A stretch of DNA of 56,452 nt, the filler included, from Squatina squatina (taxonomy: Eukaryota), in assembly GCA_031763465.1 (NCBI GenBank). It is 3 parts of 3 records of this genome, joined end to end, with 100 filler letters (N's around TTAATTAATTAA, not from the genome) between each part and the next. Parts side by side here need not be neighbours in the genome. Positions count along the whole stretch, not along the records: positions 1 to 15,182 come from JARFOE010596032.1; 2 more parts are not named here. The stretch is one strand, 5' to 3'. Position 1 is the stretch's first letter. Each line of letters begins with the position of its first letter. The notes beneath the pieces were generated by a model. It saw nothing but the letters and a program-made list of their open reading frames with translations. It had not been told where the DNA came from and ran no database searches. Both the position numbers and the translations under genes were made by a program. Of this stretch, positions 630 to 51,667 are shown one piece after another.

Positions 630-1450
630 TCATAGTGAGCCGTACTCTCTCACCCGGTGCCATACTGAACCCCACAGGTAAAGCAGAAAGGTAGTTGGCT
701 CCATCCCCGACTTGTGCCAATTGATCTGCTGTCTCACCCGATGTGGTACTGAGTCCCACACACAGACCAGGATTATCTTAATCTCCCTGCCCAGCCTCTG
801 CCCAGCGATCTGCCCTCTCTTACCCAACGTGGTGCTGAGTCTCACACACTGTGCAGGGTGACTTCATGCTCCATGCCCATCCTGTGTGCAGTGAGCTGTC
901 TGCTCTCACCCCGGTTTTTACTGAGCCCTCAGAGAGAACAGAACGATCACAAGGTCCACACCTGATCTGTCCACATTGAGTTGCCTTCGCTCACACAGTG
1001 TGGTAGTGATCCACACACACAGCACAAAGTTCGCAGCGTCCATGACTGTTCTGTGCCCAGTGAGCTGCTCTCTCACCACGTGTGGTACTGAGCGACACGC
1101 ACAGAGCAGGAAAATCTAAGGCTCCATGGCCAGCCTCTGCCCAGTGAACTGCCCTCTCTCACCTGATGTGTTACTGTGACAATCATAGAGACCAGAAAAT
1201 CTAAGAGTTTATGCCCTGCCTGTTCCCAGTCTCTTGGCCGGGTGTAAAACTGATCCCACATATGGAGCAGGAAGCTTGCAGTCTCCATGCCGCTATTTGC
1301 CCAGTAAGTTGCCCTCTTTCACCGAGTGTGGTACTATGCCTCACACAGAGAGTAGGAAGACCCAGGCTCCATCACTGGCCTTTGCCCACTGAGCTGCCCT
1401 CTGTGACCCGCTGTGCTACTGAGCACCACACAAACAGGAAGATACAAGGC
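630..1450 (+). repeat. Diverged ~86-bp satellite array, block 1
   Basis: Recurring unit approx. cccagtgagctgccctctctcacccggtgtggtactgagccccacacacagagcaggaagatcccaggctccatgcccggcctgtg, spaced about 85-86 bp. Confidence 0.85.
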
Positions 1451-1451
1451 A

Positions 1452-1882
1452 GTGTCCTGGAACCATAGGGCTGGGCAGCAATCGTGTTTCTTCTCTACAT
1501 TCTAAATCCGGGTTCTCATTTGGCCTTATTCTGCTGATCAATATTTTAACCAGCAGACTCATGTTGGTAGCTAGCAGAGTATTCAGTAGACCCAACGATG
1601 GAGAGCTGAATTAAATGCATCATTTTCATTTTTCTTGTCTCTGGGAATGTCATGCTGACATGGACTGTGTTTCTCGTGTTCCTTATAAGTGAAGGAATGA
1701 GGCTTTTGTGCTATTATTCTGTATCTCAATAATATGTTGTGCAAGAAATGGACTTCATGCTCCAGCTCCTGAGTTGCTGCAGAAACACTTGCAAATATGC
1801 GCTTACCCAGTCGAAGTTCAGAGAGCAGCTGCACAATATGGAGTAACATCACATTACTGTTATTGTAAAATTCATTAAATGA
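1452..1882 (+). pseudogene. GPR139-like rhodopsin-family GPCR pseudogene, TM5 to C-terminus only (copy A)
   Basis: Broken frames read LILLINILTSRLMLVASRV (TM5), DPTMES*IKCII, SGNVMLTWTVFLV (TM6) and MDFMLQLLSCCRNTCKYALTQSKFREQLHNME*HHITVIVKFIK* (TM7/helix 8, 1748-1882). These parallel ILVASRA, DPEMENRRKSII and MLKFLSCFQNPCIYAATQRKFREEL in the gene at 51668-52533. Confidence 0.8.
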
Positions 1883-2374
1883 TGAGGACAACTGAAAACT
1901 CAGAACTCAATTCCACCTCATAAGCTCACTGCCCTGCTCTATGACGCCGACCCAGTGATGTAGTGTAATATTAACGTTCTCATTGACACACTGTTTACAT
2001 CATAAACGGACACCTGAGTCTTGCTGTCTCCATTAAAACACTCTCACTGAGCTCAGGAATATTAGCACTCTAACCACAGCTTAAGATTAACTGACTCATT
2101 GAGACACTCTACCCGGATGACTCGACAACCAAAGGCTTACAGCAACCAATAAAATTTTCCCACATACACATAGATGATCGAAACACCGTTTGAATATTAA
2201 CCCACACACGTGTAATATTAACTGAATCGTAGAACACTCAGAACATAATAGAATAACATCAGATACATTGTGTTTGAAATACAATTCTCCCACAATCAAC
2301 AATACTTATTAACACACATATAGAGAAAAAATTTTCATAGTATCAAACTGTAATTTGTTCCTTTGGGCAAATCA

Positions 2375-2715
2375 TACTCTCTCCTTCTCTCCCTCAGAGA
2401 CACCCTCATTCTCTCACCAGGCCTGCCTCACCTCCCACTCTCATCTCTCGAACTCACGCTCTCTTTTGCACTCAGTCTCTCAAATAATCTTTATTAATAC
2501 TGGCCAGCCTCAGCTCTCTCGCACACTTTTCTTCACTCATGCTTTCACTCACTATCTCGCTCCTGCCCTGCCTCACCACAGTCTCTCTCTCGCTCTCTTT
2601 CACTCTCTCGCCTGGTCTGCCTCACCTCCCCAACTCTCATACTAACTCTCATGGCTGGCCTGGCTCACCTCTTTCTCTCCATCTCACATATGCTCAGTCT
2701 CACGTCTGGCCTGCA
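2375..2715. repeat. CT-rich low-complexity tract (second copy at about 14250-14625)
   Basis: Pyrimidine-rich ctct/ctca/cgcctg runs. Confidence 0.7.
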
Positions 2716-3525
2716 TGGAATAATGAAATGGCAGCGAAAGTAAACAATTACTTTGTTTCTGTCTTCACGTAAGAAGTCAAATAAACGCCCAGACATACTG
2801 AAGAAACAAGCACCTGGTGCGTAGGAGGAATGGAATGAAATTAGTGCCACAGAAATTAATGGGACTGAAAGCGCAAAAATCCCAAGGACCTCATAATCTG
2901 CATCCAGGGCATTTGAAAGAGGTAGCTATCCAAATAGTAGATGCATTGCTTACCAACTTCCAGATCACTATAGATTTTAGAACGGTTCCTTCAGATTGGA
3001 GGGTAGCAAATGTAACCCCACTATTTAAGACAGGAGGGAGAAAGCAAACAAGGAAGGGCAAACATATTCGCCTAACATCAGTAGTCGGGAAAATGCTGGA
3101 ATCTATCATAAGGGATGTGATAGAATATATATTGGATGTGGTGTATTTGGATTTTTAGAATGCTTTTGATAAGGTGCGTCACAGGAGTTTGGTGAACAAC
3201 TTTAGAACACATGGAATTCATAGTAATATACTGGCATCAAATGAAAACTGGTTCATAGAGAGTAGGAGTAGACGGATCATTTTCAGGTTGGCAGGCTGTA
3301 AATGTGGGTTGCCACAGCGTTCGGTGTTTGTGTGACAGCTATTCACAATCTAATTCAAAGATTTGGATGAGGGGACCAAATGTAATATTTCCAAGTTTGC
3401 TGATGACACAAAACTTGGTCAGACGTGAGGAAAATGCAAAGAGGTTTCATGAGGCAATATAAAGGCGATGCGACTATGCAATTATATGGCAGATGGAATA
3501 TAATGTGGGAAGATGTGAAGTTAGA
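2715..3525 (+). mobile_element. CR1 LINE ORF2 (RT) fragment, degenerate
   Basis: VPSDWRVANVTPLFK, LTSVVGKMLESII, DVVYLDF*NAFDKV and KFADDTKL are CR1 RT motifs. Confidence 0.9.
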
Positions 3526-5390: not shown

Positions 5391-6505
5391 CAGAACACAT
5401 AGGTCCCAGCTCTATGCCTGTTCTGGGCACAGTCAGCTGCCCTCACTCACCCGGTGTGTTATAGAGCACCACATATAAAACAGAAAGATACTAGGCTCAC
5501 AATGCCTGGCACTTGGCCACTGAGTTACCCTCTGCCCGTCGTGTTACTGACCCCCAAACATTGGCAAGGAAAATCCCAGGCCTCACATTCCGCCTGTGAC
5601 CAGTGACCTAACTATTCTTGCCCGATGTGGAACTGAGCACTATGAAGAGAGCAGGAAGATCCCGGTTCCACGCCTGGCCGGTGGCCAGTGAACTGCCCTC
5701 TCTCCCCAGATGTGGAGCTGAGCCCCACACACAGAGCAGGAACATCCCAGACTCCATGCCCGACATGTGCCAAGTGAGCTGCAATTCCCCGGTGTGGTAC
5801 TGAGGCTCACACACAGACAGCATGAAGATCCCATGTTCTACGTGCAGCCAGTGCCGATTATGATGCACTCACTCACCCGATTTGGTACTGACTCCCACAC
5901 ACGTGGAGCACTAAGTTCCCAGGGTCCATGCCCATCATTTGCCCAGTGAACTGCCCTCACTTACCTGGTGTACCACTGAGACCTGCAGACAGAGCAGGAA
6001 GATCCGAGCCTGCACGCCCGGACTGTGCCCAGTGGGCTGTTCTCTCTCATGTGGGTTGATAGTGAGCCCCACAGAAAGAGCAGGATGATTGGAGACTCCA
6101 ATCCCGGCATATGACCCGTGATCTATCCTATCTCACACTGTGCGATCTGAGAGCCACACATTTGCCTGCAAGATACCAGCTCCATTCCACGGCCTGTGCC
6201 CAGTGAGCTGCTCTCTATCACCCGGTTGTGGAACTGTGCCACAAACACACTGCAGAAAGATCTCAGGCTCCATGCCTGGATTATGCCACGTGAGCAGCAC
6301 TCTTTTACCTGAAGTGGGACTGAGCCCAACACACAGTGCAGTAAGATCCCAGACACCATGCCCGGCATTTCTCCAGTGATCTGCCCTCACCAGGTTTGGT
6401 CTTGTACCCCAGACACCAGGCAGGAGGGTCCGTGGCCCTGCGCACTGCTGGTGCTCAGAGAGCTGCCATCTCTCATCGGTTGTGGTACTGAGGCGACACA
6501 CCGAG
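5390..6505 (+). repeat. Diverged ~86-bp satellite array, block 2
   Basis: Same monomer as block 1; ccagtga-type cores near 5600, 5685, 5771, 5943 and 6029. Confidence 0.85.
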
Positions 6506-6806
6506 AAGGAATTGGACTTCAAGAGAAAGGGTAGTGTGTCAGAGAGTTTAGTGAAGGTTTGGGTGATGGACCTGCCATGGTTCAATGACGGTCAGTATGT
6601 CTGTGATGTGGGTGTGAGGCTCACAGCCTTGCTAATGATGTGAGAGCAAGGTGAAGCTATGATTTTGAAGTTTGTGCGGTGAAAGTTAGAGATGTTGGTG
6701 GTGAGTGATGGGGCTCTGGTGCATTGATCATTCTGTGAGGTTTGTTGTGCCGAAGCGGATAAATGGCAGATGGAGGGATGTGGCATTAGCTGAAGCCATC
6801 GCTCAC

Positions 6807-7060
6807 CTTCACCTGCAGTGTCACGTCATTAACCTTCTTGCAGCAGTGGATCCACGTCCGAGGTATAACCCCGTTGTCCAAGACAAAATATGTGTGGCCA
6901 TGACATACACAGCTATCTCCTGCCATAACTGTCTGGATGTGTGAGCTGATGGTTTCCTGCCACCCTGCGGGAACAGGACAGCCGACATCCTCTACACTGC
7001 CTCATCCTATATCTCCAGAGATGCTTCGGAGAAACCGCCGGCTCGTTCTCTTTGCTGCTG
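6807..7060 (-). mobile_element. Degenerate Myb/SANT-like exon of a PIF/Harbinger DNA transposon (remnant probably spans ~6510-7390)
   Basis: Minus strand reads QRERAGGFSEASLEI*DEAV*RMSAVLFPQGGRKPSAHTSRQLWQEIAVYV...PRTWIHCCKKVNDVTLQVK followed by a gtgag donor. This fits the Harbinger Myb pattern RAPRFS...W.EIA...RTW.QCRKKFND. Confidence 0.7.
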
Positions 7061-7399
7061 CTGAGTCTTTTGTTCCAACTGCAATTCGAGCTCCTACTCA
7101 AATGGCAATGAAGTGCTGTGGTAGCAAATCACCTCAACTGTGAGCAGTGGAGAAACACTAAGCCAGGCATTACTGCCCATTATCCTGCACCCGATGTTGG
7201 CCCATCTGTTGAAAGCTAAGCCAATCAACAGCGGGTTTGTCACTGAGATCAGCACTAGAATCAGCAGGTTGCATGAATTTTGCGTGCTGCCTGGACCACT
7301 TTGAACAGCGTAGCCAAATGGCACTGTGCCATAACACCACCTGGTCTTTGGCCGAATCGAGTTTCTAGGTCTAGTTTTCATGGGTTAAATGTCCTGTAA

Positions 7400-7530
7400 A
7401 GGACATAAGAATTAGGAAGACGAGGAGGACATATCGCCCTTTGCGCCTGCTCCAACACTCATAAAGATCAAGGTTCATCTTGACCTCAACTCCACTTTCT
7501 TGCCTGATCCCGATAATGCTTGTGTACCTG
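7400..7530 (-). mobile_element. Old CR1/HE1-type retroposon 3' tail
   Basis: acataagaattagga...gcctgctcc...gacctcaactccacttt is a diverged version of the tail seen at 15055-15182. Confidence 0.6.
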
Positions 7531-7799
7531 TCGCATCATGCCAGCTGAGCTCATGTGTTAAGACCTGGGATTGGGCACAAACGCATAACCTCATCTTCCG
7601 AAAGATAGAGAACTGCCAACTGGGTCCAGCTGCCAAAGACTCCACATTACACAGAAAGGAAACGCCTTTTCATGGGATATTGTCAGAGAGCAGATCCACT
7701 CCCCGTCTGCATGATTATCAATGCAGCAGCCTCTCAGTGAGTATTCAGAACATTGCCACTCCAGCCGCCTGAATCTGAGTCTGAGAATCTCAACAAAAG

Positions 7800-7863
7800 A
7801 TGATGAAAACTCTGTTCTTCATTCTTGGATTGTTGGTGCTGCCTCAGCACAGCCATTCTCGAG
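7800..7863 (+). CDS. Candidate beta-defensin-like gene, exon 1 (signal peptide)
   Basis: ATG at 7800 gives MMKTLFFILGLLVLPQHSHSR-G (basic residue followed by a hydrophobic core). Two phase-1 donors: GAG|gttttg after 7863 and CAAG|gtagga after 7887. Confidence 0.6.
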
Positions 7864-8881
7864 GTTTTGTTGTGTATTATTTCCAAGGTAGGATTGTCTG
7901 ATTTCTCATGTTCAGATCATTTAATTTCTAAAAACCTGTTTATTCTCTGCTTGATTGTCAGGTTGAGTGAAGGTGAAGGTGTGATTGTAAGAAAGTATGA
8001 AGAATTTACACTGATCCAGTTCCACAGTAAATCCAATAATTGTTCAGCGGGTACCCGAGCGGGTAGAGGGAACGGACACTGTTGTTTGCTGAGCCAAACA
8101 GACCAGTAATAAAAAGACAAAATACTGGCCGGTGCTGAGTGGGCGGATCTCAGCCGAAGCATTGATCTGGTTGGCAGACTCTGTAATTGGCCTCAGTACC
8201 TATGTATTATGGAGCGGATAGTAAGTCTTGTTGCTCCCTATCACTGCTACCTGCTGCAAAGTGGGAATGTGTGGACTCTCTGTGAGGAAAGAATCAGGAG
8301 CTCCTTCAGTCCATCTGTCCAGTCTCACAGATGACGAATGTTGAATTGGGAGCGATGCTGCAGCTGTGCTTGGAACTAGTCCCCAGGCATAAGTTAGCTT
8401 TTCATATATTGAGTGCAGGGAATTGGCTTAATGGGTTCAAATATGGTTAGTTAATTTAAATAGTCCTGTAGACATCATAGAGATCAGGATGTGAGAATTT
8501 GCACTCAGTGTAGGAGGGAAGCGGTGAAATGATTCAGTCAATGTGGCTCAGTTGGGAGTTGACTGAACAATTTCTGCAGGGGACGTGGACCGACATCACG
8601 CTCTCATGTCACGTGACCAAAAGATAACTATCCTGCGAAATCACATTTGCTGTTTGTGAGTCTTTTCTCTGAGCAAATTGGCGGCCCCGTTTCCGACAAA
8701 ACAGTATCGGCACGTGAGAAGCAATCCGCTGCCTGGGTAACGCTTTGGGGCATCTGGCACCGGGAATGGTTCCACATCAATATCTCCTCTGTGTCTCTGG
8801 CCTGAGATAGCAGTTGTGGGGAGCTCCATTCTGAGAGAAACATCTTGGCTACCCTTCAGGGCAAAGAGTCTATCTGTACAG

Positions 8882-8925
8882 GTCGGGGGAGGGGAGCGGT
8901 GGGGGCTTCCATTAACTACAAAGAG
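8882..8925 (+). CDS. Candidate beta-defensin-like gene, exon 2 (pro-segment)
   Basis: tctgtacag|GT...GAG|gtaagt; 44 nt, phase 1 to phase 0; encodes (G)RGRGAVGASINYKE and links exons 1 and 3 in frame. Confidence 0.45.
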
Positions 8926-9017
8926 GTAAGTTTCGTGTGTTGTCCAGATTCAGTCCGACTTACAGTGCAACAGTCAGCTTCATTTTTTCTCCCTGTTCTC
9001 CCTTCCACTCTGTAAAG

Positions 9018-9209
9018 AATCATCAACCAATTCATTCTTCATTCTGGATTAAAAGGAAATGCGAGTTGTATCGAGGGATGTGTCGCAATATCTGTAGAGC
9101 AAACGAGGAGTCTCCTAATTACCTAATCTGTGAAGGTGAATTCCAATGTTGGAAACAAAAGATCCAGAGATGGATTCCCACCAGCCCGAGCTCTCCACGT
9201 TCTCATTGA
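9018..9209 (+). CDS. Candidate beta-defensin-like gene, exon 3 (mature peptide, 5 Cys)
   Basis: Long polypyrimidine tract plus aag acceptor; encodes NHQPIHSSFWIKRK-CELYRGMCRNICRANEESPNYLICEGEFQCW-KQKIQRWIPTSPSSPRSH*. Spacing is C-x6-C-x3-C-x11-C-x5-C-W, with a GxC motif at the second Cys. Confidence 0.6.
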   Translation, partial: NHQPIHSSFWIKRKCELYRGMCRNICRANEESPNYLICEGEFQCWKQKIQRWIPTSPSSPRSH

Positions 9210-9624
9210 ATGAAACACCTGTTCACGGGAAGCAGCCTCTTTTTCATTCGGTAAATCCCGTAACCCCCGACCCTGTATTAATAATGTTAGAATAATTGTC
9301 TGTACACAAAAGGAAAACTTCCTGCATTGATCACCGCTTCATTTCCATGTCTGTTTTTCCCTGTTGTAGCACTGTGCCTGCGGGCAAGGTGATCGGGGGT
9401 GGAATGAGGCTGGGAGATGGTGTGGGAATCGCAGGAAATGGAAAGAGGCACCACTGCCGGGAATCTCTGCAATTGCAGAATGTTACATTTAGAAATGTAC
9501 TGAGATAAGCCCAGTGTCCCAGTGTGTCAGCAATCTCACCGTTCGGGGTTCAGGGTATCTCAGTTGAAAGGGTTTGTTTTGGCAGGCAGGAAGCAGACAT
9601 ATTTTGCATCAGACCCACAGTCTG

Positions 9625-10040
9625 TTTGGTGGGACAGCGCAGAGAATGGTTCAAACTGTATCTCAGCCATACTATCTCTGCCTCTCAGACTCGTTGGTGT
9701 GACAGTACAGAGGGAGCTTTACACTGTATCTAAACCGTGCTGTACCTGTCCTGGGAGTGTTTCTTGGAACAGTGTAGAGGGAGCTTTTCACTATATAAAA
9801 CCTGTGAGTTTTTGGTGGGATACTGAAGAGGGAGCTTTACACTATCCAGCCCATGCTCTATGTACCCGTGTGAATCTGTGTTAAGACACTGCAGAGGGAG
9901 CTGTACACTGTTTCTAACGCATAATTTATCCACCCTTGGGAGTGTTTGGTGGGTCAGTGCAGATTGAGCTTTGCACAAACGTACCCGTACTGTATCTACC
10001 CTTTGGAGTGTATGTTGGGACTGTGCAGAGCAGAGAGGGC
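9625..10040 (+). repeat. Degenerate ~60-65-bp tandem repeat (gggacagtgtagagggagctttacactgtatcta type)
   Basis: agagggagctt(t)acact recurs near 9709, 9776, 9828 and 9893. Confidence 0.7.
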
Positions 10041-10164: not shown

Positions 10165-10640
10165 AATGACCCAATATCCGAGGGAATCTAAACCCCTCTC
10201 TCCTGCACCATCTCCAGCCACTCACGAGCACGAGGCACTGGAAGTAATCCTGAGACTACATCCTTTGAGATCCTGCTTTTTAATTTATCTCCTAACTCCT
10301 TAAATTCCGCTTGGAGGAACTCAACCTTTTTTTATTTTTGTTACCCGTATATACCACGACCAGTGGCTGTTCACCCTCCCCCTCCAGAATGCCCTGCAGC
10401 CACTCGCAGCCATCTTTCACCCTTCTCCTATTCATCTGTCCCACTTGTATCTGCTCCATAATGCTTCATCCTGGTGACCCTCCCCCTGCAAGCTTAGTTG
10501 AAACCATCTCCCACAACGCTCGCTGAAGTGCCAGCGAGGAGCCTAGTCCCAGCACTTTTGAGATGCAACCTGTCCGTCTTTTATCGATCTCTCCTGATAC
10601 AGGAAACTGAAAAGTGACCAGTTCCCTGGACTTAACAGAT
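10165..10640 (-). mobile_element. CR1 ORF1 (SGNH esterase) fragment
   Basis: Minus strand has VVSGLLP and WCRREGFRF, like the ORF1 remnant at 41500-41950. Confidence 0.6.
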
Positions 10641-11304: not shown

Positions 11305-13258
11305 GGCTTCACCTAGTGTGGTACTGAGCACAAAACAAACAAAAGGAAGATACCAGTATTCATGCCCAGTCAGCTGCCCCCTCTCACCCAGTGTGAAGAT
11401 CCATGGCTGCAGGTGAACATTGTGCCCAGTGAGCTGCCCACTCTCTCCTGGTGTGGGGCTGATCTCCACACAAAGGGCAGGAAAATCCCAGGCTCTATGC
11501 CCGGCCTGTGCTGAGTGAGCAACACTCTGACACCCGGTATGGCACTCAGCCCCAAAAACAGAGATCAGAGTCTCCATGGGGCACATGTGTGCCGTGAGCT
11601 GCCCTCTCTCCGCTGTGCAGTACTGAGCCCCACTCAGGAGCAGGAAGTTCACTGTCTCCATGCTCAGCCTGTGGCCAAGGAGCCAGTTATTCTCACCCGG
11701 TGCGATAGTGAGCACTACAAAGGGAATAGGAAGATCCGGGCTGCAAAGTGGGTTGCCCTCTCTCATTTGGTGTGGTACTGAGCTCCTTAAAAGAGAAGGA
11801 AGATCCCAGCCTCCATGCCTGGCCTGTGCTAGTGAGCTGCTCTCCATCAGCCAGTGTGGCACTGTGCCTCGCACACAGAACAGGAGGATCCCAGTCTCCA
11901 TGTCCGGTGTGTGCCAAGTGAGCTTCCCTTTCTCAGTCTGTGTGGTACTGAGCCCCAGAGACAAGCAGGAAGATCCCGGGCTCCATGCCTGGCCTTTGCC
12001 AAGTGAGCAGCGCTCTCTCTAATCGTATGGTATTGATTCCGATACACAGAGCTGGAAGATCCCGTGCTGCACGACGGGACTCTGCCCAGTACACTGCACT
12101 GTCTCAACTCGGCTGATGCTGAGCCCCTCAAAAAGAGCAGAAAGAGAGATGCAATGCCTCGTAATCTCTCCTCTCTCACACTGTGTGATCTAAGGCCCAC
12201 AGAATTGACTACAAGATACCAGCTCCGTTACAGGGCCTATGCCCATTGAGCTTCTCTCCATCACACGGTGTGGCACAGTGGCACAACCACAGAGCAGGGA
12301 GATCTCAGGCTCCATCCCTGGCCTATGCCGAGTGAGCAACCCTCTTTCACCCGAAGTGGGACTGAGACCAACACACAGAGCAGCAAAATCCTCGATTCCA
12401 TGCACGGCTTCTGACCAGTAACCTGCCCTCACCAGGTTTGGTGTGAACCCCAGACACTGGGCAGAAAGATCTTCAGGTCCATGCGTGGCAAATTCCCAGT
12501 GAGCGGCGCTCTCTCATCTGCTGTACAGAACCCCACACACGGGGCTGGAAGAAACAAATGCTCCATGCCAGTCCTGGGTCCTTCCACTCTCACTCTGTGC
12601 GGCAAGTGCCCAGTGAGATGCTGTCTCTCATCCTGTGTGGTACTGAACCCGACACACGTGGCAGAACGATCCCAGGCTCAATACCTAGCCTGTGTCCAGT
12701 GAATTGCCGTCCCTCACCCGGTGTGTTGCCCCACAACATAGATGTGCAAAACCCCAGGCTACAAGCCTGGCCTATGCTCAGTGAGCTGCCGTCTCTCACA
12801 CATTGTGCGGCTCAGCCACACACTTAGAGCGCAGGAAGATCCCAGGCTTAAGCCGGTCTTTACCCAGAGTGCTGCCCTCTCTCCTGCTGTGGTACTGTGC
12901 CCAAAACACAGTCCAGGAGGATCCCAATTCCATGCCCCGCCGTGTGCATTGAGAATCGCTCCATCAGTGTGGCACACATACAGAGCAGAAAGTTCCCAGA
13001 CTCCATAGCTGGCATGTGCCAAATGTTTGGACTCTGTCAACCAGTTTGTTACTGAGCACAACACACAGAGCACAGCAATGTACCAGGCTCAATGTCCGGC
13101 CAGAACCCAGTGAGCTTCACACTCTCACTTGTTGTGGTACTGAGACGAACAAAGGGTTCCAAAAAATCACAGATTCCATGCCCATCCATTGCGCAGTGAG
13201 CAGCTCTCACTGACCCAGTGTGGTACTAAGCCCCGTTCGGAGCACAAAGATAACAGGC
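11305..13258 (+). repeat. Diverged ~86-bp satellite array, block 3 (over 20 monomers)
   Basis: Same monomer; runs directly into GPCR pseudogene copy B. Confidence 0.85.
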
Positions 13259-13755
13259 GGTGTTCTGGAATCAAAAGTCTGGGTAGCAATCATGTTTCTT
13301 CATTACATTATAAATCCGGGGGTCCATTTTTTATTATTCTGCTGCTCAATTTTTAAACAAACAGTCACATGTTGCTGCTAGCTGAGTCTGAAGGAGACAC
13401 CCGGATCACAACAGTGGGGAAATTTCCAGACACCCACCGATGGAGAGCTGAATTAAATCTATCTTTTTCCTTTTTCTTGTCTCTGGGAATGACATACTGT
13501 AATGAACCGTGTCTATCGTGTTTCTCATACTGTTATGAACTGTGTTTGTTGTTTTTCCTATTAGTGAATGAATGAGACAATTGTGGTCTGAGTCTGAATC
13601 TCTGCTTTATTTTGTGCAAGAAATGGACTTCATGCTCCAGCTCCTGAGTTGCTGCAGAAACACTTGCATTTCTGCCCTTCCCCAGTCTGATTCCAGAGAG
13701 CAGTTAGACTATGGTGAAATATCACTTTACTGTAACTGTAATGTACAGGAAGTGA
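13259..13755 (+). pseudogene. GPR139-like GPCR pseudogene, TM5 to C-terminus (copy B)
   Basis: VLESKVWVAIMFLHYIINPG, FFIILLLNF*TNSHMLL, PPMES*IKSI and FVQEMDFMLQLLSCCRNTCISALPQSDSREQL, with stops and frameshifts. Confidence 0.8.
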
Positions 13756-14624
13756 TGAGAAGAAGAGAAGAGTTTTCAGCATCAGAAATCAATTCCGCCT
13801 CATAGTCTCACCGACCCGCTCTCCGCCCCCGGCTCGGTGATGTAGATTATTATTAACGCACCCACTGACACACTGTGTACTTCATAATCCGCCACCAGGA
13901 ACACGCTGTCTTCTTTAAAACACTTCCACTGAGCTCAGGAATATGGACACTCTGTCAGAGACCACAGGTTAAGATTAACTGAGTCACTGAGACACTCTGT
14001 CTGTCCCACTTGACGACCAAACTCTGAGAACAACCACTAAAACACCCGCACAGACACTTGGCTGATCGATGCACCCTGTGATTATTGACTGAATCGCAGT
14101 ACACACTGAACACAATAGAACACCAGGAGATACATTCTTTGTGAAATCAATTTATCCTACAAATCCACAATAAATATTAACATACACATAGAGAAACATT
14201 TTTCACAGTAACACACTGTCATGTGTTCCTGTGGACAAATCGCACTTACTCTGTTGCCTCCCCCTCTCTCGCTCGGTCTTTCACACCCACACACTCACTC
14301 TCTCGCCTGGCCCGCCTCAACTCACATACTCATCTCATTAACACACACTCTGTTTTGCACTCTTGTTCTCAGATAATATTTATTATGGCTGGCTGGACAC
14401 ACCTCAATCTCTCTCGTTTTTTCCACACTCATGCTCTCACTCACTAGCTCTCTACTGCCCTCTTTCACTCTCTCACCTGTCTGCCCCATCTCTCTCTCAT
14501 ACTTACTCTTCCGACTGGCCTGCCTCACATGCCTTTTTCCCTTTCTTTCTCTCACTCACATTCTCGCCTCGCCTGCCTTACATCATTCTTGGCCTCTTAC
14601 ATGAGCTCACTCTCTCACCTGGCA

Positions 14625-15052
14625 TACATGAAATAAGGAAATGGCAGAGAACTTAAACAAATCCTTTGTGTCTGTCTTGGAAGAAGAAGACACAAAACAG
14701 CCCAGAAATACTGAAGAACCAAGGGTCTGGCAAGGATGAGGAACTGGATGAAATTAGTACCAGCTAGAAAATAGTACTCGAGAAATTAATGGGAATGAAA
14801 GTCAGTAAATCCCAAGGAGCTGATCATCTACATACAGGGGTTCTGAAAGTGGTAGCGATACAGATAGTGGATGCACTGGTAGTCATCTTCCAAACCTCTA
14901 TACATTCTAGAAGGGAACCTGCAGTTTGGAGGGTAGCAAATGTGATCCCACTAATAAAGAAAGAAGGGAGAGAGAAAACCGGGAACAACAAACCTGTTAG
15001 CCTGATAGCATCAGTGGGGAAATGCTACAATCTATCATAAAGGATGTGATGA
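14625..15052 (+). mobile_element. CR1 ORF2 fragment, paralogous to 2715-3125
   Basis: KSQGADHLHTGVLK...WRVANVIPLIKKEGREKTGNNKPVSL. Confidence 0.85.
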
Positions 15053-15182: not shown

Positions 15183-15282
15183 NNNNNNNNNNNNNNNNNN
15201 NNNNNNNNNNNNNNNNNNNNNNNNNNTTAATTAATTAANNNNNNNNNNNNNNNNNNNNNNNNNNNNNNNNNNNNNNNNNNNN
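15183..15282. other. Artificial scaffold-joining spacer (N44 + TTAATTAATTAA + N44)
   Basis: Palindromic six-frame-stop 12-mer at 15227-15238, centred in a 100-nt N run. Confidence 0.97.
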
Positions 15283-23265: not shown

Positions 23266-25335
23266 CAATGCGGCTCTGCGTTAGTTGGACATGTTTGGGG
23301 TCTGGTCGAAGACTCACAAGTCTCTTTCAGCTTCACTCTGAGCTGTTCCAACACCATTGATGGATATGAAAACTAGCTCGGGTAGAGGCCCTGGACTTAG
23401 TTGATGTTTCCCTCAATAGAGCCTCATATCTGACATACTGCTGACTTGCTGCAAAAGGCAATACAACCCACTATCCAGAACAGGAGGTGTTATTTTGTGG
23501 CCAAGGAANNNNNNNNNNNNNNNNNNNNNNNNNNNNNNNNNNNNNNNNNNNNNNNNNNNNNNNNNNNNNNNNNNNNNNNNNNNNNNNNNNNNNNNNNNNN
23601 NNNNNNNNGGTTTTGCGCCTCCACTAACTTCCGCGCAATCTCGAACCACATGCGCCCCTCGGATATGTGGGCCTCTACGCAGGCCTACACGTAGAGGCCC
23701 AGGAGCGCAAGTCTCCATGGATCCAGGACCATCGAGTAGGTGCGTACTTTTATGGTGGTTCGGAGGCACCGTTCGCAGGAAGCCTTCAACCACAAATTCA
23801 GGCCCCATATAATTGAAGCAGACAATGAAGAGCGCAAGGTGCTGTAACCTTGTGTTAAGATTAAACTCATAATGCAACATCTGCTCCAGTGGTAGATTTT
23901 CTAACAGTGCGCAATTTGCATATGATGCAGATAAGCTTGTTGCTGCTCTTAGTTGCTAACAGAATTCTCCATCATGCTTCTCTGCAGACTCTGTGGTAAG
24001 CTTAATGAAATCAAAGAAACAGCAGGTGATACTTCCTGTAAGTATTTATGTATCAGATCAACTAAGCACTTATTCATCTGGAACTGTATATTCTAGATTT
24101 TGGGTGATGAGATTTAAGATGACATGACACTCAAGCATAATATAACAGCAATATTCCTCTGGTGTAAAGGTGTAAAGTTCAAATTGTTCCTTTTTGTTGT
24201 ATTTCAGCAATCAGCTAAAATGCCATTGATCCTCGAGCTTTGTTGGTTTTCTACCAGGTCATTGCACTTTGTGCCTGAATTTTCAAATGGTTCACTCCTT
24301 GCTCCCACCCCCACCCGTTGACTTATTTTCAGGAGCAGCTGGAAATAATCAATGTTACCCGCAAGCTTGTTGCAACAGTATGACGTCCCATTAGTGTCAT
24401 ATCAGGTGGTGACAGTAAAGTCAGGGACTGACAGGCAAGCATAAGTTTTCCATTTGCTCTGAGGCCACGTGCAAGAGTTGAGACATTTGGGATGGAGCTG
24501 TCTGGGAACAAGAATTCAGGGCTGGAATCTCCATAAGTTGTGAAAAGGAGCGAGACTAAACTAATGGCTGAGAATTGATCTTAGTCAGAACTGGAATATC
24601 AGGACTTCCCAGCTGGATGTTACCCTTAAATAGAAGGTGCATGGTGTCAAATTGAGCAGTTTCTGTCGATGTCTCTACTGTCTATCAGTCATCTCATTGT
24701 CTCAGGTGGGGTTTATCACTTCAAGCATGATGGGGGCCTGGTGCTGACAGTGATTCTGATTGGCTTACTATAGTTCAAGCTGAANNNNNNNNNNNNNNNN
24801 NNNNNNNNNNNNNNNNNNNNNNNNNNNNNNNNNNNNNNNNNNNNNNNNNNNNNNNNNNNNNNNNNNNNNNNNNNNNNNNNNNNNACCGAGATATTTTACA
24901 AGTAACCCACACTTTTTGGCCTTTGACAATCAGTCGACACCAATTATGGAAAAGTCTATGACCAGCCCAATTATGACAACGGACTGACATGCAAACACCA
25001 CAAGGTCTGAGAAAGGTCTTTAGATGTCTGCCTATTGTCAATTTTCTGTTCAGGTCCTGCCCAGTTTTAGCCTCTCTCACACATCACCACCGCCCTATTA
25101 TGTGACTATCTCACCACATCACTCTCTAACATATTCGCTGGCTCACCGTCAACAATGCCCTAGTTTTATCAAATTTTCTTCCAAAGTGCAGTGAAATTCT
25201 ACTTCAATGCATAAACCACAGATCTGCATCTCATAACTAGATCACATTCTTCACAGCCTGGTACTGGTCGGCATCGTACACATAGTTAATGGGCAAATTC
25301 CAGAGTACTGTGTGCGCTACATTAAGCTTACTTAC

Positions 25336-25572
25336 TTGCTACAGTATCTTGATATGAAGGTGGTTGTCCAGAATATGGAGTTGGATATGGTGGTGGATAG
25401 GGGCCACTTCCAGGATAGGGACCACTTGCAGGATAGGGACCTATAGGTGGTGCTGGCTGAATCGGCATAGGAGTATATCCTTGGTACGGAACAAAACCTT
25501 GTGCTGGTACTTGAGGTTGTTGTGGATATGCAGACTGTACCACTGTAGTTGTAGTTGAACTTGTAACAACAG
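25336..25572 (-). CDS. SHISA5: SHISA5 (scotin) internal exon, proline-rich cytoplasmic tail
   Basis: ttctctttag|CT...GCA A|gtaagt; 237 nt, phase 1/1; VVTSSTTTTVVQSAYPQQPQ...YQGYTPMPIQP...YPPPYP...PPSYQDTVA. Matches recalled human SHISA5 (VVTTTTSTTVVHAPYPQPP...YQGYHTMPPQP...YPPPYP...PPAYHETLA). Confidence 0.8.
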
Positions 25573-25734
25573 CTAAAGAGAATGAGGAGACAAAATCATC
25601 AGTTAGTTCATTAAAACTAAAATTAAGCTTTTTTCATCAAATTTGTAAAGAAATCATCACTATGGGATAAAGAATAGTACTCTGAATGTAAAATACTCCT
25701 CCCAAAAATAAAGACAGCGAGGCTGGGACATAGG

Positions 25735-30252: not shown

Positions 30253-30352
30253 NNNNNNNNNNNNNNNNNNNNNNNNNNNNNNNNNNNNNNNNNNNNTTAA
30301 TTAATTAANNNNNNNNNNNNNNNNNNNNNNNNNNNNNNNNNNNNNNNNNNNN
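30253..30352. other. Artificial scaffold-joining spacer (N44 + TTAATTAATTAA + N44)
   Basis: Identical to the spacer at 15183; 12-mer at 30297-30308. Confidence 0.97.
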
Positions 30353-30885
30353 ACATTCCCGCACCTCACCATCCAAGAGTTTGTAGCTGCACTCGCACAA
30401 TTCCTGACTCCAGATCCCGGGGACATCCGAAAACTCCTCAGTGAAGCCCACAGTGAGGAAGATGGGCGATTTGAGATATTTCTCCGTTTTGTTGCTGGTC
30501 TCACCTCCCCACAGGCAGCTCGGCCCCTGGGGGAGTTTCTGGGTCCATTTCTTCATCAAACCACCTGCCGAGTGATTGACTGGGTGAAGGAGAAGGTTGA
30601 AGGACAGATTAGAAACACGTCCAGTGAAACTGGGAAAAGGAAACTTCTGAACACTTTGCATTACCTGTTTGAGTCTCAGAATAACCTACTGGTACAGAAG
30701 ACAGTTGGGTCTGTGGAAAAACTTAGCTTAATTGGTTTGCGACTGACCCCGATTGACTGTGCGGTCCTATCTCATGCCATTGGACTCTGCGATACAATAA
30801 AACATCTCGATTTACGGGAGTGCTACATTCAGTGCGAAGGACTCCAGCGGCTGGGACCCATACTGCACAAATGCCAGGAGTTGAG
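30353..30885 (+). CDS. NLR (NACHT-LRR, NLRP3-like) large exon, 3' part: winged helix, HD2 and start of LRR
   Basis: Open frame TFPHLTIQEFVAAL...GRFEIFLRFVAGL...LLNTLHYLFESQN...LTPIDCAVLSHAI...HKCQELR, ending AG|gtaac. FxHLTIQEF and FLRFxxGL are NACHT-associated motifs. Confidence 0.92.
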
Positions 30886-32351
30886 GTAACAGTTTATTTG
30901 TATTTAATGTTGGGCAAATTTAGAACAGGCACGGATTGTGTTGTTGCTCCGTAATAGAGGGAAAAAATCAAATTATTCAAACCACCCAGAAGCATTCAAC
31001 ACAAATATGGCAATAACATGAGGATCAGTTTGTAAGGACTGCAGTATCTCTGCTTCTTCTGATTAAGTGAAGAATTTTCAGTCTTTATTGGATCAGCAAA
31101 TGCTGGTCACTGAAAGTATCTGGCAATTTAATACAAATACATCATATTTGTTGCTGTATTTTTCACTGCCTTAGCAGCGTCCCTTGAGAAGGCTCGATCT
31201 GCAGCAGTCTGTGTGTAGGAGCATCCTACCCTCTTCCCGAGATGTAGGGGCAAGCGACAGTCACAGGGCTGTCCACATGTGTAGGAGAGAGAAGCAGAAA
31301 TACCAAACGTTGAGTAACCCAGAGAAACACAGCTTTCGTGCAGTGAACCACCAGTGGGCGAGCTGAGCTTTCCCCACAGGGCGCCGTTACATTATCTTAA
31401 CTCATCAATGAGACAGCCTGTCACACTCTCCAATGCATCCACCACCTCTTCGCCCAGCTGGCACCACTCGCACCTCTGAGTCAGAAGGTTATAGATTCAG
31501 GCCTTTTGCTCGTAATCAAGGCCAACACGTCAGTGAGATTTGGGGAGCTAAAATCTGCCGGTATAAACGTTCCAATTTAACAGGTTGTGGGGTATTAGCC
31601 CCAGAGTACAGACAAACACCGGTCTGCGGTGGGGCCTCGGTAAACCGGGGCAGTGAACCCAGGAGTTCCCATAATTCGCCCCATGTGAGGCTCCGCTCAG
31701 GGAGGGAACTTCCTAAAATTCCCCAAAAACTGTCGGGCCAGTAACTCCTCAAATAAATGTAGAGCCAATTTAATGGGGAATAAAGTGAGAGACTCCACTC
31801 CTGTATAAACTAGGAGCACAGGGACATTTAAAACTTGTAACGGGACAGAATAAACTCTCCTTGTTACATAAAATCCTGGAGGATGGATTTCAGAGCAGCA
31901 GTTAGCGCCATTTCACAATATAAGTCACCCAAGATATACAGATTAATATAACGCACAGAGTATAAAACACAGGGAAACACCGCTTTATCATTTCCTTCTG
32001 TGAAAATCGCCCCATTCCCATAAAATCTGGAATATACGGAGCAGCAGAAATAATGACGTGTCTGGTCACTGAGCTCCAGTAGGGTAATTCTGATCATCAC
32101 AGAATGAGACCGAACTGAGGGACATTTAAAGGCTTCACACAGGCAGCACTTTATTTAACAAATATATTTACTGACCATCCTTGAATATATGGGGAATTGG
32201 CCAGAGTGACTTTCATTGCCAGTGACTTGAAAACCTGTTCATTAATTTCCTAAAGTATTTTTCAGTGTTTCCTGTAATATCCAAGAGAAAATTGTATCAG
32301 ATCCGGGGTTTGATTCAGTTTGTTTCTCACTCTCTGTTTGTTTGTGTTCAG

Positions 32352-32612: not shown

Positions 32613-32712
32613 NNNNNNNNNNNNNNNNNNNNNNNNNNNNNNNNNNNNNNNNNNNNNNNNNNNNNNNNNNNNNNNNNNNNNNNNNNNNNNNNNNNNNNNN
32701 NNNNNNNNNNNN

Positions 32713-35700
32713 CACACCCCACAGACAAAGCCCTGCACACCACTGACACAGCCCCACATCACACTGTCACAGCCTCACATCACACAGACCCAGCCCCGCA
32801 TCACACTGACACAGCCCCACATCAGCCTGTCACAGCCTCACATCACACTGTCACAGCCTCACATCACACTGACACAGCCGCACATCACACTGACACAGCC
32901 CCACACACCCACACCCCACAGACTGAGCCCTGCACAGCACTGACACAGCCTCACATCACACTGACACAGCCCCACATCACACTGACACAGCCCCACATCA
33001 CACTGTCACAGCCTCACATCACACTGACACAGCCGCACATCACACTGACCCAGCCCCGCACCCACACCCCAGTGACACAGCCCCGCATCACACTGACCCA
33101 ACCCCGCATCCCACTGATGCAACCCTGCAACAACACCCGACTAAACTGTGCCGGCACCTTACTGATCCCGCACTGCACCAACACACCACTGAAACTATCA
33201 ACACGGATTCCCAACTGACCCAGCCCCACACCTCACTGATGCAGTCCACATCAAAACGACCCAGCCTCACACCCCACTGATCCCGACCTGCACCGAGACA
33301 CCACTCAACCGCTCGACACAGACACCAAACTGATCCAGCCCCAAACCCCAATGTCCCAAACAAAAAGCCCACTGACCCAGCCCCACACTAACTGACCCAG
33401 GCCTGAACCACACTTACCCAGCCTCACACCCCTCTGACACATCCACACACAGCACTGACCCAGCCCCACACCCACTGACCCAGCACCACACCCAGTGTCT
33501 CATCCCCCACCCCACTGATCCAACCCCACACCAACTGGCCCAGCCCCACACCCCACTCACACTGTGCTACACAGATACGCCATTGATCCACCTCCACGCA
33601 GCACTGATCCAGCTCCACAACGCACTGACCCTGTCCTACACACCACTGATCCAGCCCCACACCCACTGTCCCATCCCCACACCCACTGGCCATGCCCCAC
33701 ACCTCACTGTCCCATCCCCACACAGCACTGACCCAGTCCCACACCCCACTGACCCTGTTCTACACAGATACCCCACTGATCCAACCCCGTACCCCACTGA
33801 CACAGCCTTACACAGACTCCCCACTGACCCAACCCCACAACCCACTGACCCTGCCCTACACAGGTACCCCACAGATCCAGCCCCACACCCCACTGACCCT
33901 GTCCTACACAGATACCCCACTGATACAGCCCCACACCCCACTGTCCCATCCTCACACAGCACTGACCCAACCCCACATCCCACTGACCCTGCCCTACACA
34001 GGTAACCCACTGATCCAACCCCACACCCCACGGACCCTCTCCTACAGAGATACCCCACTGATCCAACCCCACACTCCACTGACACTGCTTTACACAGACT
34101 GCTCACTGATCCCACCCCACACCCCACTGACCCTGTCATACAGAGGTACCCCACTGATCCAACGCCACACCGCACTGACCCGTCCTACACAGACTCCCCA
34201 CTGATCCAACCCCACACCCCACTGAACCTGTCCTACACAGACTCCCCACTGATCCAACCCTACACCCCGCTGAACCTGTCCTACACAGATACCCCACTGA
34301 TCCAACACTACACTCCACTGAACCTGTCCTACACAGATACCCCACTGATCCAAAACCACACCCCACTGAACCTGTCCTACACAGGTACACCACCTTTCCA
34401 ACCCCACACCCCAGTGACCCTGTCCTACACAGGTACCTCACTGACCCAACACCACACCCCACTGAACCTGTCCTACACAGGTACCCCATTGACCCAACCC
34501 CACACCCCACTGAACCTGTCCTACACAGGTATCTCACTGATCCAACCCCACACCCCACTGAACCTGTCCTACAGAGATACCTTCCTGATCCAACCCCACA
34601 ACCCACAGACACTGCCTTACACAGACTCCCCACTGACCCCACCCCAAACCACCCTGACCCTGAGCTACACAGAGTCCCCACTGACACAACCCCAGACCCT
34701 ACTGACACTGTCTTACAGAGACTTCCCACTGACCCAACCCCACACACCACTGACACTGCCTTACACAGATTCCCCACTGACCCAACCCCAGACCCTACTG
34801 ACACTGCCTTACACAGACTCCCCACTGATCCAACCCCAGACTCTACTGACACTGCCTTACACAGACTCCCCACTGACCCAACCCCACACACCACCGACAC
34901 TGCCTTACACAGATTCCCCACTGACCCAACCCCACACCCCACACCCCACAGACACTGCCTTACACAGATTCCCCACTGACCCAACCTCACACCCCACTGA
35001 CACTGCCTTACACAGATTCCCCACTGACCCAACCCCACACCCCACAGACACTGCCTTACACAGATTCCCCACTGACCCAACCCCACACCCCACCGACACT
35101 GCCTTACACAGATTCCCCACTGATCCAACCCCACACCCCACTGACACTGCCTTACACAGATTCCCCACTGACCCACCCCACACCCCACAGACACTGCCTT
35201 ACACAGGTACCCCACTGACCCACCCCACACCTCACAGACACTGCCTTACACAGATTCCCCACTGATCCAACCCCACACCCCACTGACACTGGCTTACAAA
35301 GACTCCCCACTGATCCAACCACACACCCCACTGACACTGACTTACACAGACTCCCCACTGACACTGCCTTACACAGACTCCCCACTGATCCAGCCCCACA
35401 CCCCACTGACACTGCCTTACACAGAGTCCCCACTGACCTGGCCCTACACCCACTGACACTGCCTTACAGAGACTCCCCACTGACTCCAGTCCACACCCCA
35501 CTGACACTGCCTTACACAGACTCCCCACTGACCCAAACCCACACCTCACAGACACTGCCTTGCACAGACTCCCCACTGACCCAACCCCACACCCCACTGA
35601 CACTGCCTTACACAGTCTCCCCACTGACCCAACCCCACACCCCACTGACACTGCCTTACACAGACTCCCCACTGACCCAAACCCACACCTCACAGACACT

Positions 35701-35915
35701 GCCTTACACAGACTCCCCACTGACCCAAACCCACACCCCACTGACACTGCCTTACACAGATTCCCCACTGATCCAGCCCCACACCCCAATAACAATGCAT
35801 CACAGAGACTCCCCACTGACACCAGCCCACACCCCACTGACACTGCCTGACACAGACTCCCCATTGATCCAACCCCACATCCCACTGACACTGCCTTACA
35901 CAGATTCCCCACTGA
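32713..35915. repeat. C/A-rich minisatellite with 21-bp units grading into 48-bp units
   Basis: Units cacactgacacagccccacat, then ccccactgacccaaccccacaccccactgacactgccttacacagact; 7-aa and 16-aa periodicities in the ORF track. Confidence 0.95.
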
Positions 35916-37941: not shown

Positions 37942-38134
37942 CAACGTCCTCTGCTCCAAGGAGAACAACCCCAGTATCTCCCGTCTACCAACGTCCTCTG
38001 CTCCAAGGAGAACAACCCCAGTATCTCCAGTCTACCAACGTCCTCTGCTCCAAGGAGAATAACCCCAGTATCTCCAGTCTACCAACGTCCTCTGCTCCAA
38101 GGAGAACAACCCCAGTATCTCCAGTCTACCAACG
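37942..38134. repeat. 47-bp tandem repeat, 4 copies, inside the CR1
   Basis: caacgtcctctgctccaaggagaacaaccccagtatctccagtctac starts at 37942, 37989, 38036 and 38083. Confidence 0.95.
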
Positions 38135-39769: not shown

Positions 39770-42349
39770 GTCTTTAACAAACTCGTGCTGACTTTCCTTA
39801 ATTAATCTAGCCCTATCCAGGTGACTGTGAATTTTATCACTGACCACTGTTTTTAAAAGCTTCCCCACTACCGAGGTTAAACTGACGGCCCTGTAGTTGT
39901 TAGTTTCTCTTTTCACCCTTTTTTGAACAATGGCGCAACAGTTGCAATTCTCTCTAGCACCTATCTATGGAGGATTTGAATATCATGGCCAGTACCTTGA
40001 TGATTTCCGCTCTCAATTCCCTCAGCATCCGAGGACGCATCCTCTCCACTCCTGGTCATGTATCTATTTTAAGTATAGCTAGCTTTTCTAATGCATATTC
40101 TTTATCAATTTTTCTCCCATCAAGTGTCTCTACCACCTCCTGCTTCACTATGTCTATGGCAGCATCCTCTTTCTTGGTGATGACAGATGCAATGTACTTA
40201 TTTAGTACCTCGGCCAATCCCACTGCCTCCATACATAGATCTCCTTTTTGGTCCCTAAGCGGCCTCACCCCTCCCCTTAATAATCTTTTACTATTTATAT
40301 GCCCATAGAAGACTTCGGGATTAACTTTTATGTTGGTTGGCATTCTATTCTGATAACTATCTTTGCCCCTCTTATATTCTTTTTCACTTCTCTGATCTTT
40401 GAATACAGTCTGACTCTAAGATGTATTTGCTACCTGACATCTGTCAAACGTGCTCTTTTTCTGCTTCATCCTATTCTCTATTACTTTCGGTTTCCAGGGA
40501 GCACTGACTTTATTTGCTCTTCCTTTCCCCTTTGTGGGAATGTACTTCGACTGGACCTGAATCATTTCCTCTTTAAATGCAACCCATTGTTCCACTAAAG
40601 GTTTGAATGTCATCCTTGGATTCCAGTTTACATGGGCCAGATCCCTTTTCACCCCACTGAAAATGGCCTTCCCCAAGTTAAACATTCTTACTCTGGATTG
40701 TTTCCTGTCATTTTCCCTCGATAATGAAAACCTCATGATAATATGATCACTGTTCCATAAATGTTCACGTACTGATGCTTGCTCCACTTGACCTGCCTCA
40801 TTCCACAGAACCAGATCCAGCATCCTTGTCGGGCCGGAAAAATGCAGATCAAGAAATTTCTCCTGAACACAGTTCAGAAATTCTTCCCCTTCTCTGCCCT
40901 TTACACTATTGCGGTCCCAGTCTAAACTAGGATGGTTGAAGTCCCCCATTATGACTACTATGTATTTCTTTCAACTCTCTGCAATTTCTCTGCAAATTTG
41001 CTCCTCAATATCTTTGCCACCATTTGTTGGCCTACAGAATACACCTAGCTGTGTAATGTCACCTCTATTATTTCATACCTCGAACCATATAGATTCTGTC
41101 CTTGACCCTCCAGAACATCCTCGCTCTCCAGCACTGTCATGTTCCCTTAACCAAAACTGCCACACCACCTCGTATCCTGCCTCCCCTATCTTTCCTGAAC
41201 ACGTTATAACCAGGAATATTTAATACAAAATCCTGCCCTTTTTTGAGCCACGTCTCAGTTATTGCCACAACATCATTTTCCCATGTCGCTATTTTTGCTT
41301 GCAGCTCACTTACCTACGCTTCATGCCTTGACAAACATATACTGTAATCCTACCACAGACCATCCAGTATTCTCTCTTAATTGGACCCCGCTTAATTCCT
41401 AATATTTCTTACTCTGATATTGTCAATCTTTTTAACACTTTATTCCCACTTTCTAAAGTTACGTCCTGGTGCCCATTCCCCTGCCAAATTAGGTTAGACC
41501 TTGCCCAACAGCACGAGTTCACATTCCCTTGAGAATATTTGTTCCAGCCCTGTTGAGGTGCAACCCGTCCGGCCTGTACAGGCCACACCTCCGGCAGAAC
41601 CATCCCAACCGCACCAGGAAACTGAAGCCCTCCTCTCAGCACCATCTCTCCAGCCACACAGTCATGAGCTCCATCATCCTATTTCTATATTCACTCGCCT
41701 GTGTCACTGGAAGTAATCCGGAGATTACTATCATTGTCGTCCTGCTTTTTAATTGCTGCCCGAGCTCCCTAAAACCTTCTGCAGGATCTCATCCCTCAAT
41801 CGACCTAATTGGTACTAATATGGACCAGGACCTCTGGCTGTTCATCCTCCCCACTCAGAAGGTTCTGCAGCCACACTGTGTCATCCTTTAACCTGACAGC
41901 AGGGAGGCAACATACCATCCTGGAGTCATGCCTGTGGCCGCAGAAATGCTGCCCTGCTCTCCTAATGATAGAATACCCTACCAATATTGCTCTCCCACTA
42001 TTTTTATTTCAGTGCTCTACAGCGGTGCCACCCTTGCTGCTGCACAATTGCCCCGGCTCGTTTCCCAAGTGAAACTATCGCCCTCACCAGTACTCAGAGC
42101 AGATTACTGGTTGGAGAGCGAGAAGCACTCAGGGACCTCCTGCACCACCCGCCTGCTCCTCCTTTTCTGTATGGCAAACATGCATACCCTCTCTGCCTAC
42201 ACACTACTTATCTGCCAGGTGAGCAACTTCAGACAAGGGCATTCCACTAACCTCTCAGGCTCGCGAATTCCCCGCAGTATCTCCAGCTTCTGCTCAAGGT
42301 ACGAGTGCCGGAGCTCGAGCTCCCCTGCTGTTTTACAAAATAAAGCTAT

Positions 42350-51222: not shown

Positions 51223-51667
51223 GTGAGCCATTGTAACCTGTTCATTGTTAATAGCGATTAACTGTATCCCTATTCTTGCAGCCTGTTTGATAAGATAACG
51301 TGCTTTCTAGATGTCAGCATTACACAGTTGGTAGTGACTGGAACACCTCATGAACCGTGTGTCTGCACTTTCTATTGTCCCCTTAATCCGATAACAATAA
51401 TGAAGGTACAATGTTCTCTGAAGTTACAACACAAGCATTGTCGCGGATTTCCGGGCCGTCTTGTCACCCGGTGCAGAGTGAGCGCTGCAGCAGCTCATTA
51501 AAATGTGTGGGTGGGCTTCCCAGGTAACGGCTCCAATACTAATCCTATTCTCACACTGCTCCGTGTTGATAATCACACTGAATAGAGTAAAATGCTCTCA
51601 ACAGGGATCTACATAGATATTCAATCAGACACTGGAATATTATTACTCTCCTCGTTCTTTCTTACAG

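Follow-up and report, generated by a model that had tools for sequence, protein, structure and literature searches.

Does the plus-strand interval 7800-9209 of this DNA from the shark Squatina squatina hold a genuine beta-defensin gene, and what would that gene make if the codon expected for its sixth cysteine reads TGG? The original prediction had drawn three exons here, encoding a signal peptide, a pro-segment and a five-cysteine core. We followed it up across the whole stretch of DNA analysed, 56,452 nucleotides, which we call the window.

RESULTS

Three exons join in one open frame

We found that the three-exon layout at 7800-9209 (+) has GT-AG introns, of phase 1 and then phase 0. The exon coordinates and matching phases of the original prediction were reproduced, and our translation was identical to the one it gave. 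The coding part of exon 1 begins at 7800 and encodes a signal-peptide-like N terminus, with a Lys, a hydrophobic core and small residues. It ends either at 7887 (88 nt) or, in a shorter alternative, at 7863 (64 nt). Intron 1 (7888-8881, 994 nt, GT-AG) is in phase 1. Exon 2 (8882-8925, 44 nt) encodes a predicted pro-segment without cysteine and turns phase 1 into phase 0. It is followed by a phase-0 intron of 92 nt with a clear pyrimidine tract (8926-9017). Exon 3, counted from its start to the stop (9018-9209, 192 nt), encodes the rest of the pro-segment, a basic KRK, the cysteine core and a cationic Pro/Ser tail, and is closed by TGA at 9207-9209. The spliced frame is open for 99 aa with the exon 1 end at 7863 and for 107 aa with the end at 7887.

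We scored splice sites with a simple matrix, whose base frequencies are approximate, and ranked them against the 6,656 GT and 7,533 AG sites of the window. Donor 7887 is good, with 85 of the 6,656 GT sites equalling or beating it. Donor 7863 is weak and falls at the median (3,593 of 6,656). Both ends had been allowed for and both fit the phase, but the peptide originally put forward as the main version uses the weaker donor. On these matrix scores the 107-aa form is the likelier product, and we consider 7887 more likely than 7863 as the end of exon 1. The longer exon adds eight residues, mostly hydrophobic. We take 7863 to be the position at which beta-defensin signal exons usually end.

Downstream, no AATAAA or ATTAAA poly(A) signal occurs within 1.5 kb 3' of the stop. 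The only near-variants in the 1.5 kb scanned are AATGAA at 9209 and TATAAA at 9794. Within intron 1, the stretches 8080-8330 and 8600-8790, the second ending about 90 nt before exon 2, resemble what we presume to be old SINE remnants.

Exon 2 is probably a real pro-segment exon

Exon 2 is the top-scoring in-phase, stop-free internal exon candidate of its interval. Its donor, 8925, is near-perfect (equalled or beaten by 5 of 6,656 GT sites), and the exon 3 acceptor, 9018, ranks 315th among the 7,533 AG sites. The exon 2 acceptor, 8882, is middling at rank 666, and a better one lies 22 nt upstream at 8860 (rank 174), out of phase. We asked how often chance does as well. A total score at least equal to that of exon 2 was found in 11 of 400 resamples and in 6 of 75 real window tiles, whereas a donor equal to 8925 together with a usable in-phase acceptor turned up in only 2 of the 400 resamples and 1 of the 75 tiles.

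These figures bear on a reading in which the gene has two exons and was frameshifted near the start of exon 3, so that exon 2 is a chance cryptic exon and the locus a pseudogene. Skipping exon 2 does shift the frame: a direct splice from exon 1 to exon 3 meets a stop within 11 codons, after about 10. The middling acceptor with its stronger out-of-phase rival, and the equally good candidate exons in 6 tiles, also speak for that reading. The rarity of so good a donor paired with a usable in-phase acceptor argues against it, as does the position of that donor, 92 nt upstream of the acceptor of exon 3, and the three-exon model requires no indel. We regard the frameshifted two-exon gene as distinctly improbable. 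Exon 2 is thus a probable pro-segment exon and the least secure part of the gene model.

The signal exon and the cysteine motif are each unique in the window

We asked of every ATG in the window whether a basic residue, then a hydrophobic stretch without charge and finally a good phase-1 donor came after it. Only 2 of 1,932 ATGs passed, the tandem pair at 7800 and 7803, a figure that is optimistic because the scan criteria were chosen after the exon had been seen. By the same hydropathy and donor scan, which is heuristic, the signal peptide sits on its own exon and is followed by a phase-1 intron.

Across all six frames of the 56-kb window, the five-cysteine spacing is found a single time. It arose in 5 of 100 order-3 Markov resamples, and in none of the 100 when a Gly before Cys2 was also required. 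The signal exon and the cysteine motif share a strand, are separated by 1.26 kb and fall in the interval 6512-9700, which showed no repeat match in other parts of the window. On this comparison within the window we rejected the possibility, named at the outset as one that would undo the gene, that exon 3 is part of a repeat. No second defensin was found in the window by motif, tblastn or Pfam. Given a unique motif and a unique signal exon, close together on one strand and in sequence free of such matches, we take the unannotated beta-defensin-related gene at 7800-9209 as real.

A five-cysteine core ends in tryptophan

The core, C-x6-C-x3-C-x11-C-x5-C-W, spans 9060-9152 (+), with cysteine codons starting at 9060, 9081, 9093, 9129 and 9147. 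The TGG codon at 9150-9152 directly follows the fifth cysteine and encodes Trp where Cys6 is expected. It lies one base away from a cysteine codon, as originally claimed. There is thus no six-cysteine motif ending in CC, but five cysteines and then Trp. A Gly stands two residues before Cys2 (G-x-C) and none stands before Cys4, where Leu-Ile occupies the place of the beta-bulge glycine. That glycine is largely conserved in beta-defensins (PMC3978490, in the portion available).

The spacing of 6-3-11-5 fits the avian motif C-X4-8-C-X3-5-C-X9-13-C-X4-7-CC given in the accessible part of PMC3978490, except for Cys6. Its Cys3-Cys4 gap of 11 exceeds the 8-10 given in the corresponding part of PMC6716921. 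The latter source also gives the beta-defensin pairing as C1-C5, C2-C4 and C3-C6, so with Trp at Cys6 the C3-C6 bond is impossible as encoded.

The core alone carries a net charge of about -2. Most of the positive charge, about +4, resides in an 18-residue basic Pro/Ser-rich tail (9153-9206, +). Counted from the Lys that precedes Cys1 to the C terminus, the net charge is about +3, so the predicted mature form is net cationic. The pro-segment had been described as ending in a basic KRK site. The basic cluster is present, but KRK falls short of the furin consensus and is not a full furin site.

Could the TGG be an error in the consensus of an ordinary six-cysteine beta-defensin, or one of two alleles where such a gene is heterozygous? 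The single base that separates it from a cysteine codon, and an assembly fragmented by 12 N runs, would fit this. Substitution errors are rare in unique sequence, however, and the 9150 site lies outside homopolymers and repeats. We think this explanation improbable.

Three kinds of search name the beta-defensin family

We searched exon 3 against Pfam, whose two beta-defensin profiles had been suggested as a check. Defensin_beta_2 (PF13841) was named weakly, with an E value of 0.018 for exon 3 and of 0.0072 and 0.0019 for two trimmed parts. Its score of 15.9-19 bits, over profile positions 1-19 of 30, does not reach the curated cutoff of 22.2, and PF00711 was not among the Pfam matches of exon 3. 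On the whole of exon 3, DUF1153 outscores PF13841 (E 0.0033). We rejected it, as its match ignores the cysteine pattern and leaves the signal exon unexplained.

As a control we used 54 frames with at least 5 cysteines in 40 residues, taken from 748 frames of at least 40 aa with two large tandem arrays excluded. Only the exon 3 frame matched a defensin family (0 of the 53 other cysteine-rich frames did). With the NLR frame set aside, 6 of the 52 other control frames gave unrelated Pfam matches at E up to 0.1.

In a search of PDB sequences, the best of 4 matches to exon 3 was human beta-defensin 106 (DEFB106, 2lwl; E 0.051). Cys1-3 fall in register in this alignment, and the Trp stands opposite Cys6, the second Cys of the human CC. 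The Gly before Cys4 is also absent there, and the feature is therefore not strict. The fourth of the 4 matches was the sea anemone peptide helianthamide (4x0n; E 1). In the helianthamide alignment our fifth cysteine stands opposite Cys6, so the identity of the missing cysteine is less certain, although loss of Cys5 is less likely than loss of Cys6 in that it needs three base changes rather than one. Searching PDB with the 40-aa core put a snake venom serine protease first of 3 matches, all non-significant. We rejected it because it ignores the cysteine pattern and leaves the signal exon unexplained.

In the ESM Atlas, all matches listed were beta-defensin clusters, with scores of 0.82 and 0.79 and 177 and 174 shared features. 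Scores below 0.9 are rated as leads only. Other searches added no relatives. Protein searches with exon 3 gave no candidate homologue at 34-111 aa or 112-2000 aa, and an exhaustive phmmer search gave 2 matches at E up to 0.001, both tandem-repeat proteins that lack the cysteine pattern and that we rejected as repeat-inflated chance matches. Rfam gave 0 matches. AlphaFold2 run on the single sequence produced a helical hairpin for 63 aa (pLDDT 63) and a helix with a beta-hairpin for 40 aa (pLDDT 68), in models too weak to judge the fold (pTM 0.37-0.38). With these weak models, Foldseek gave no match at E up to 0.001, and VIA-align found nothing at Z of at least 5 among 48,161 chains and no defensin among the 50 matches listed.

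Might exon-like pieces instead have come together here by chance, or might the locus encode an unrelated protein that is small, secreted and cysteine-rich? Every match stayed below its curated threshold and no homologue was found, as this reading would have it. Against it, neither the motif nor the signal exon recurs in the 56 kb, the two lie close together, and Pfam, PDB and the Atlas, three different kinds of search, name one family. We regard it as very improbable. Taken together, three weak lines that agree on a family which also explains the signal exon suggest that the gene very probably descends from beta-defensins, and the beta-defensin-like assignment originally made is supported, each line being weak. 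The gene has the anatomy of a beta-defensin. Since the core lacks the six-cysteine motif and the Pfam score lies below the cutoff, we file it as beta-defensin-related.

The gene lies between satellite arrays and duplicated blocks

The window is stitched from separate pieces. The joints at 15183-15282 and 30253-30352 each consist of N44, a 12-base linker with stops in all frames, and N44, and eight 100-N gaps are also present in the window. We found no recognisable neighbour gene on the defensin piece.

The gene is flanked by a diverged satellite with a unit of about 85 bp, in three arrays at about 620-1450, 5400-6500 and 11420-13230. A 1.8-kb block is duplicated at 1379-3121 and 13186-15050, 11.8 kb apart, with the gene between the copies, which are 70% identical. 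Within the block a core of 57 nt is perfectly identical (about 1737-1793 and 13612-13668), possibly through gene conversion or as a constrained element, and a leader-like hydrophobic stretch lies upstream of it. We considered the blocks as antigen-receptor V pseudogenes and rejected this, having found no Pfam or PDB support. The flanking arrays and the 70%-identical copies suggest that the surroundings of the gene are an old tandemly duplicated region. One repeat is common to the defensin piece and another piece (10236-10403 with 41705-41874); this, with the common assembly, suggests that the defensin piece comes from a shark, like the receptor described below.

Three other coding features were seen in the window, and as the window is stitched from pieces, none of them is a neighbour of the gene. 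At 30353-30889 (+) lies an NLR exon fragment with an NLRC4_HD2 domain (E 7.5e-17), cut by the piece boundary. At 25328-25633 (-) lies a proline/tyrosine-rich exon without a Pfam match, which we take to resemble the cytoplasmic tail of SHISA5 (scotin). At 51586-52533 (+) lies a single-exon GPR139-like receptor of a shark-expanded family. The 120 best listed of its 1,003 relatives are shark proteins in 120 of 120 cases, with 64-76% identity to the best, and Pristiophorus is closest among the matches listed (74-76%). Its frame of 315 aa covers 91-94% of relatives that are 324-328 aa long and, judged by this alignment, may carry an internal deletion. Tandem arrays occur at 32700-35900 (21/48-bp units), 48919-50694 (48-bp), 55018-55371 (59-bp) and 37942-38134 (47-bp).

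DISCUSSION

The gene departs from its family in two respects: Trp stands in the place of Cys6, and the pro-peptide probably has an exon of its own. As in vertebrate beta-defensins, a signal exon is followed by a phase-1 intron and the peptide is cationic with a tail, and as in those of tetrapods, all cysteines lie in one exon. Unlike them, it has a long pro-segment with its own exon, and its Pfam score lies below the cutoff. Human DEFB106 shares Cys1-x6-Cys2-x3-Cys3 with Gly before Cys2 and five residues between Cys4 and Cys5, but it has 9 residues between Cys3 and Cys4 where we found 11, and Cys6 where we found Trp. Helianthamide, which we take to have a beta-defensin fold, matches weakly along the entire core (E 0.5-1), and the residues that follow Cys4 are part of the match. 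The match is non-significant, and helianthamide differs in its Cys1-Cys2 spacing and in having six cysteines.

In mouse Defr1 a Tyr at residue 5 takes the position of Cys1. Defr1 is a five-cysteine allele of the six-cysteine Defb8; it must form a covalent dimer to be antimicrobial, and it is also chemotactic, according to the available part of PMC2883079. Like Defr1, the shark gene keeps five of the six canonical cysteines after a point change that put an aromatic residue in the place of the other, and it has an open frame and a predicted free thiol. It differs in that Cys1 is replaced in Defr1 and most likely Cys6 here, and the dimer and the activity are data on Defr1 only.

The pro-peptide exon also has parallels. 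Teleost beta-defensin genes, as described in the accessible portion of PMC3978493, share three exons, two introns and a prepropeptide, but their six cysteines are spread over two exons and their precursors are 60-77 aa long. We did not find this split over exons 2 and 3; all cysteines are in exon 3 and none is in exon 2. Anole beta-defensin genes have extra non-defensin exons (PMC6716921, in part), and in chicken the majority of the genes have three or four exons, with long C-terminal tails in AvBD3 and AvBD13 (PMC3978490, in part). These squamate and avian clusters share with our gene variable spacing and cysteine number, extra exons (in anoles) and long tails; as far as the same portions go, cysteines were gained there, whereas Cys6 was lost here. 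With a five-cysteine form in tetrapods and extra exons in anoles and chicken, neither oddity is without precedent. The rarity attributed to the gene at first was overstated, given the covalently dimerising Defr1 (PMC2883079, in part), and a separate pro-peptide exon is less unusual than supposed, given the extra exons reported for anoles in the available part of PMC6716921.

Our best explanation, held at about even confidence, is an intact beta-defensin-derived gene for a secreted five-cysteine host-defence peptide in which the unpaired cysteine may link two copies. According to this model, splicing from 7887 to 8882 and from 8925 to 9018 would give a 107-aa precursor. The signal peptide would be removed near residue 20, and cleavage at the basic cluster immediately ahead of Cys1 would release a pro-segment of 30-40 residues. 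The predicted mature peptide of about 50 residues would have a net charge near +3, with -2 in its acidic core and +4 in its basic tail. If the family pairing applies minus Cys6, two bonds would still form, and Cys3 would be left free because its partner is lost. In the secretory pathway the free thiol would favour disulfide-linked dimers, and by analogy with Defr1 the dimer might act on microbial membranes or as a chemoattractant. The Cys-to-Trp change, a single base, is likely recent and may be confined to one copy or allele of a fast-turning-over family.

The same locus may, though we think it on the unlikely side, be a decaying copy: a real beta-defensin gene recently out of selection, in which the loss of Cys6 is inactivating and any peptide misfolds or is idle. 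Both Cys6 and the Gly before Cys4 are missing, the donor at the usual position is weak, and a canonical poly(A) signal is lacking. The gene sits among satellites and 70%-identical duplicates, and beta-defensin genes evolve by birth and death (PMC4255768, in the part available). Yet 99-107 codons are free of stops and frameshifts, and donor 8925 is near-perfect. Odd-cysteine alleles can be active (PMC2883079, in part), and acidic, atypically spaced beta-defensins are on record in the accessible portions of PMC3978493 and PMC6716921.

A bolder form of the intact-gene explanation, which we regard as doubtful, is that squalomorph-type sharks have a beta-defensin subfamily with a pro-peptide exon, a fixed Trp for Cys6, a secreted dimer linked through Cys3, an acidic core and a cationic tail. 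If true, such a subfamily would have reached the Defr1 design by a second, independent route, and its gene layout would be the third for beta-defensins in jawed vertebrates.

Our searches of the open-access literature brought up no paper on beta-defensins in chondrichthyans; supplementary gene tables of shark genomes could list some. In its available text, the review PMC6795676 names transferrin, squalamine and kenojeinin I as shark antimicrobial peptides and no defensin, and the accessible parts of PMC10423725, PMC10707392, PMC13337447 and PMC9363672 likewise yielded no shark defensin. With a shark gene of this layout, cartilaginous fish would be among the groups whose beta-defensin genes keep all cysteines in a single exon, and this placement would suggest that the split-cysteine layout of teleosts is derived. 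A damaged copy would add a further marker of turnover in the beta-defensin family. Should the Trp be fixed and the gene expressed, it would let the origin of odd-cysteine, dimer-forming defensins be tested in a natural case.
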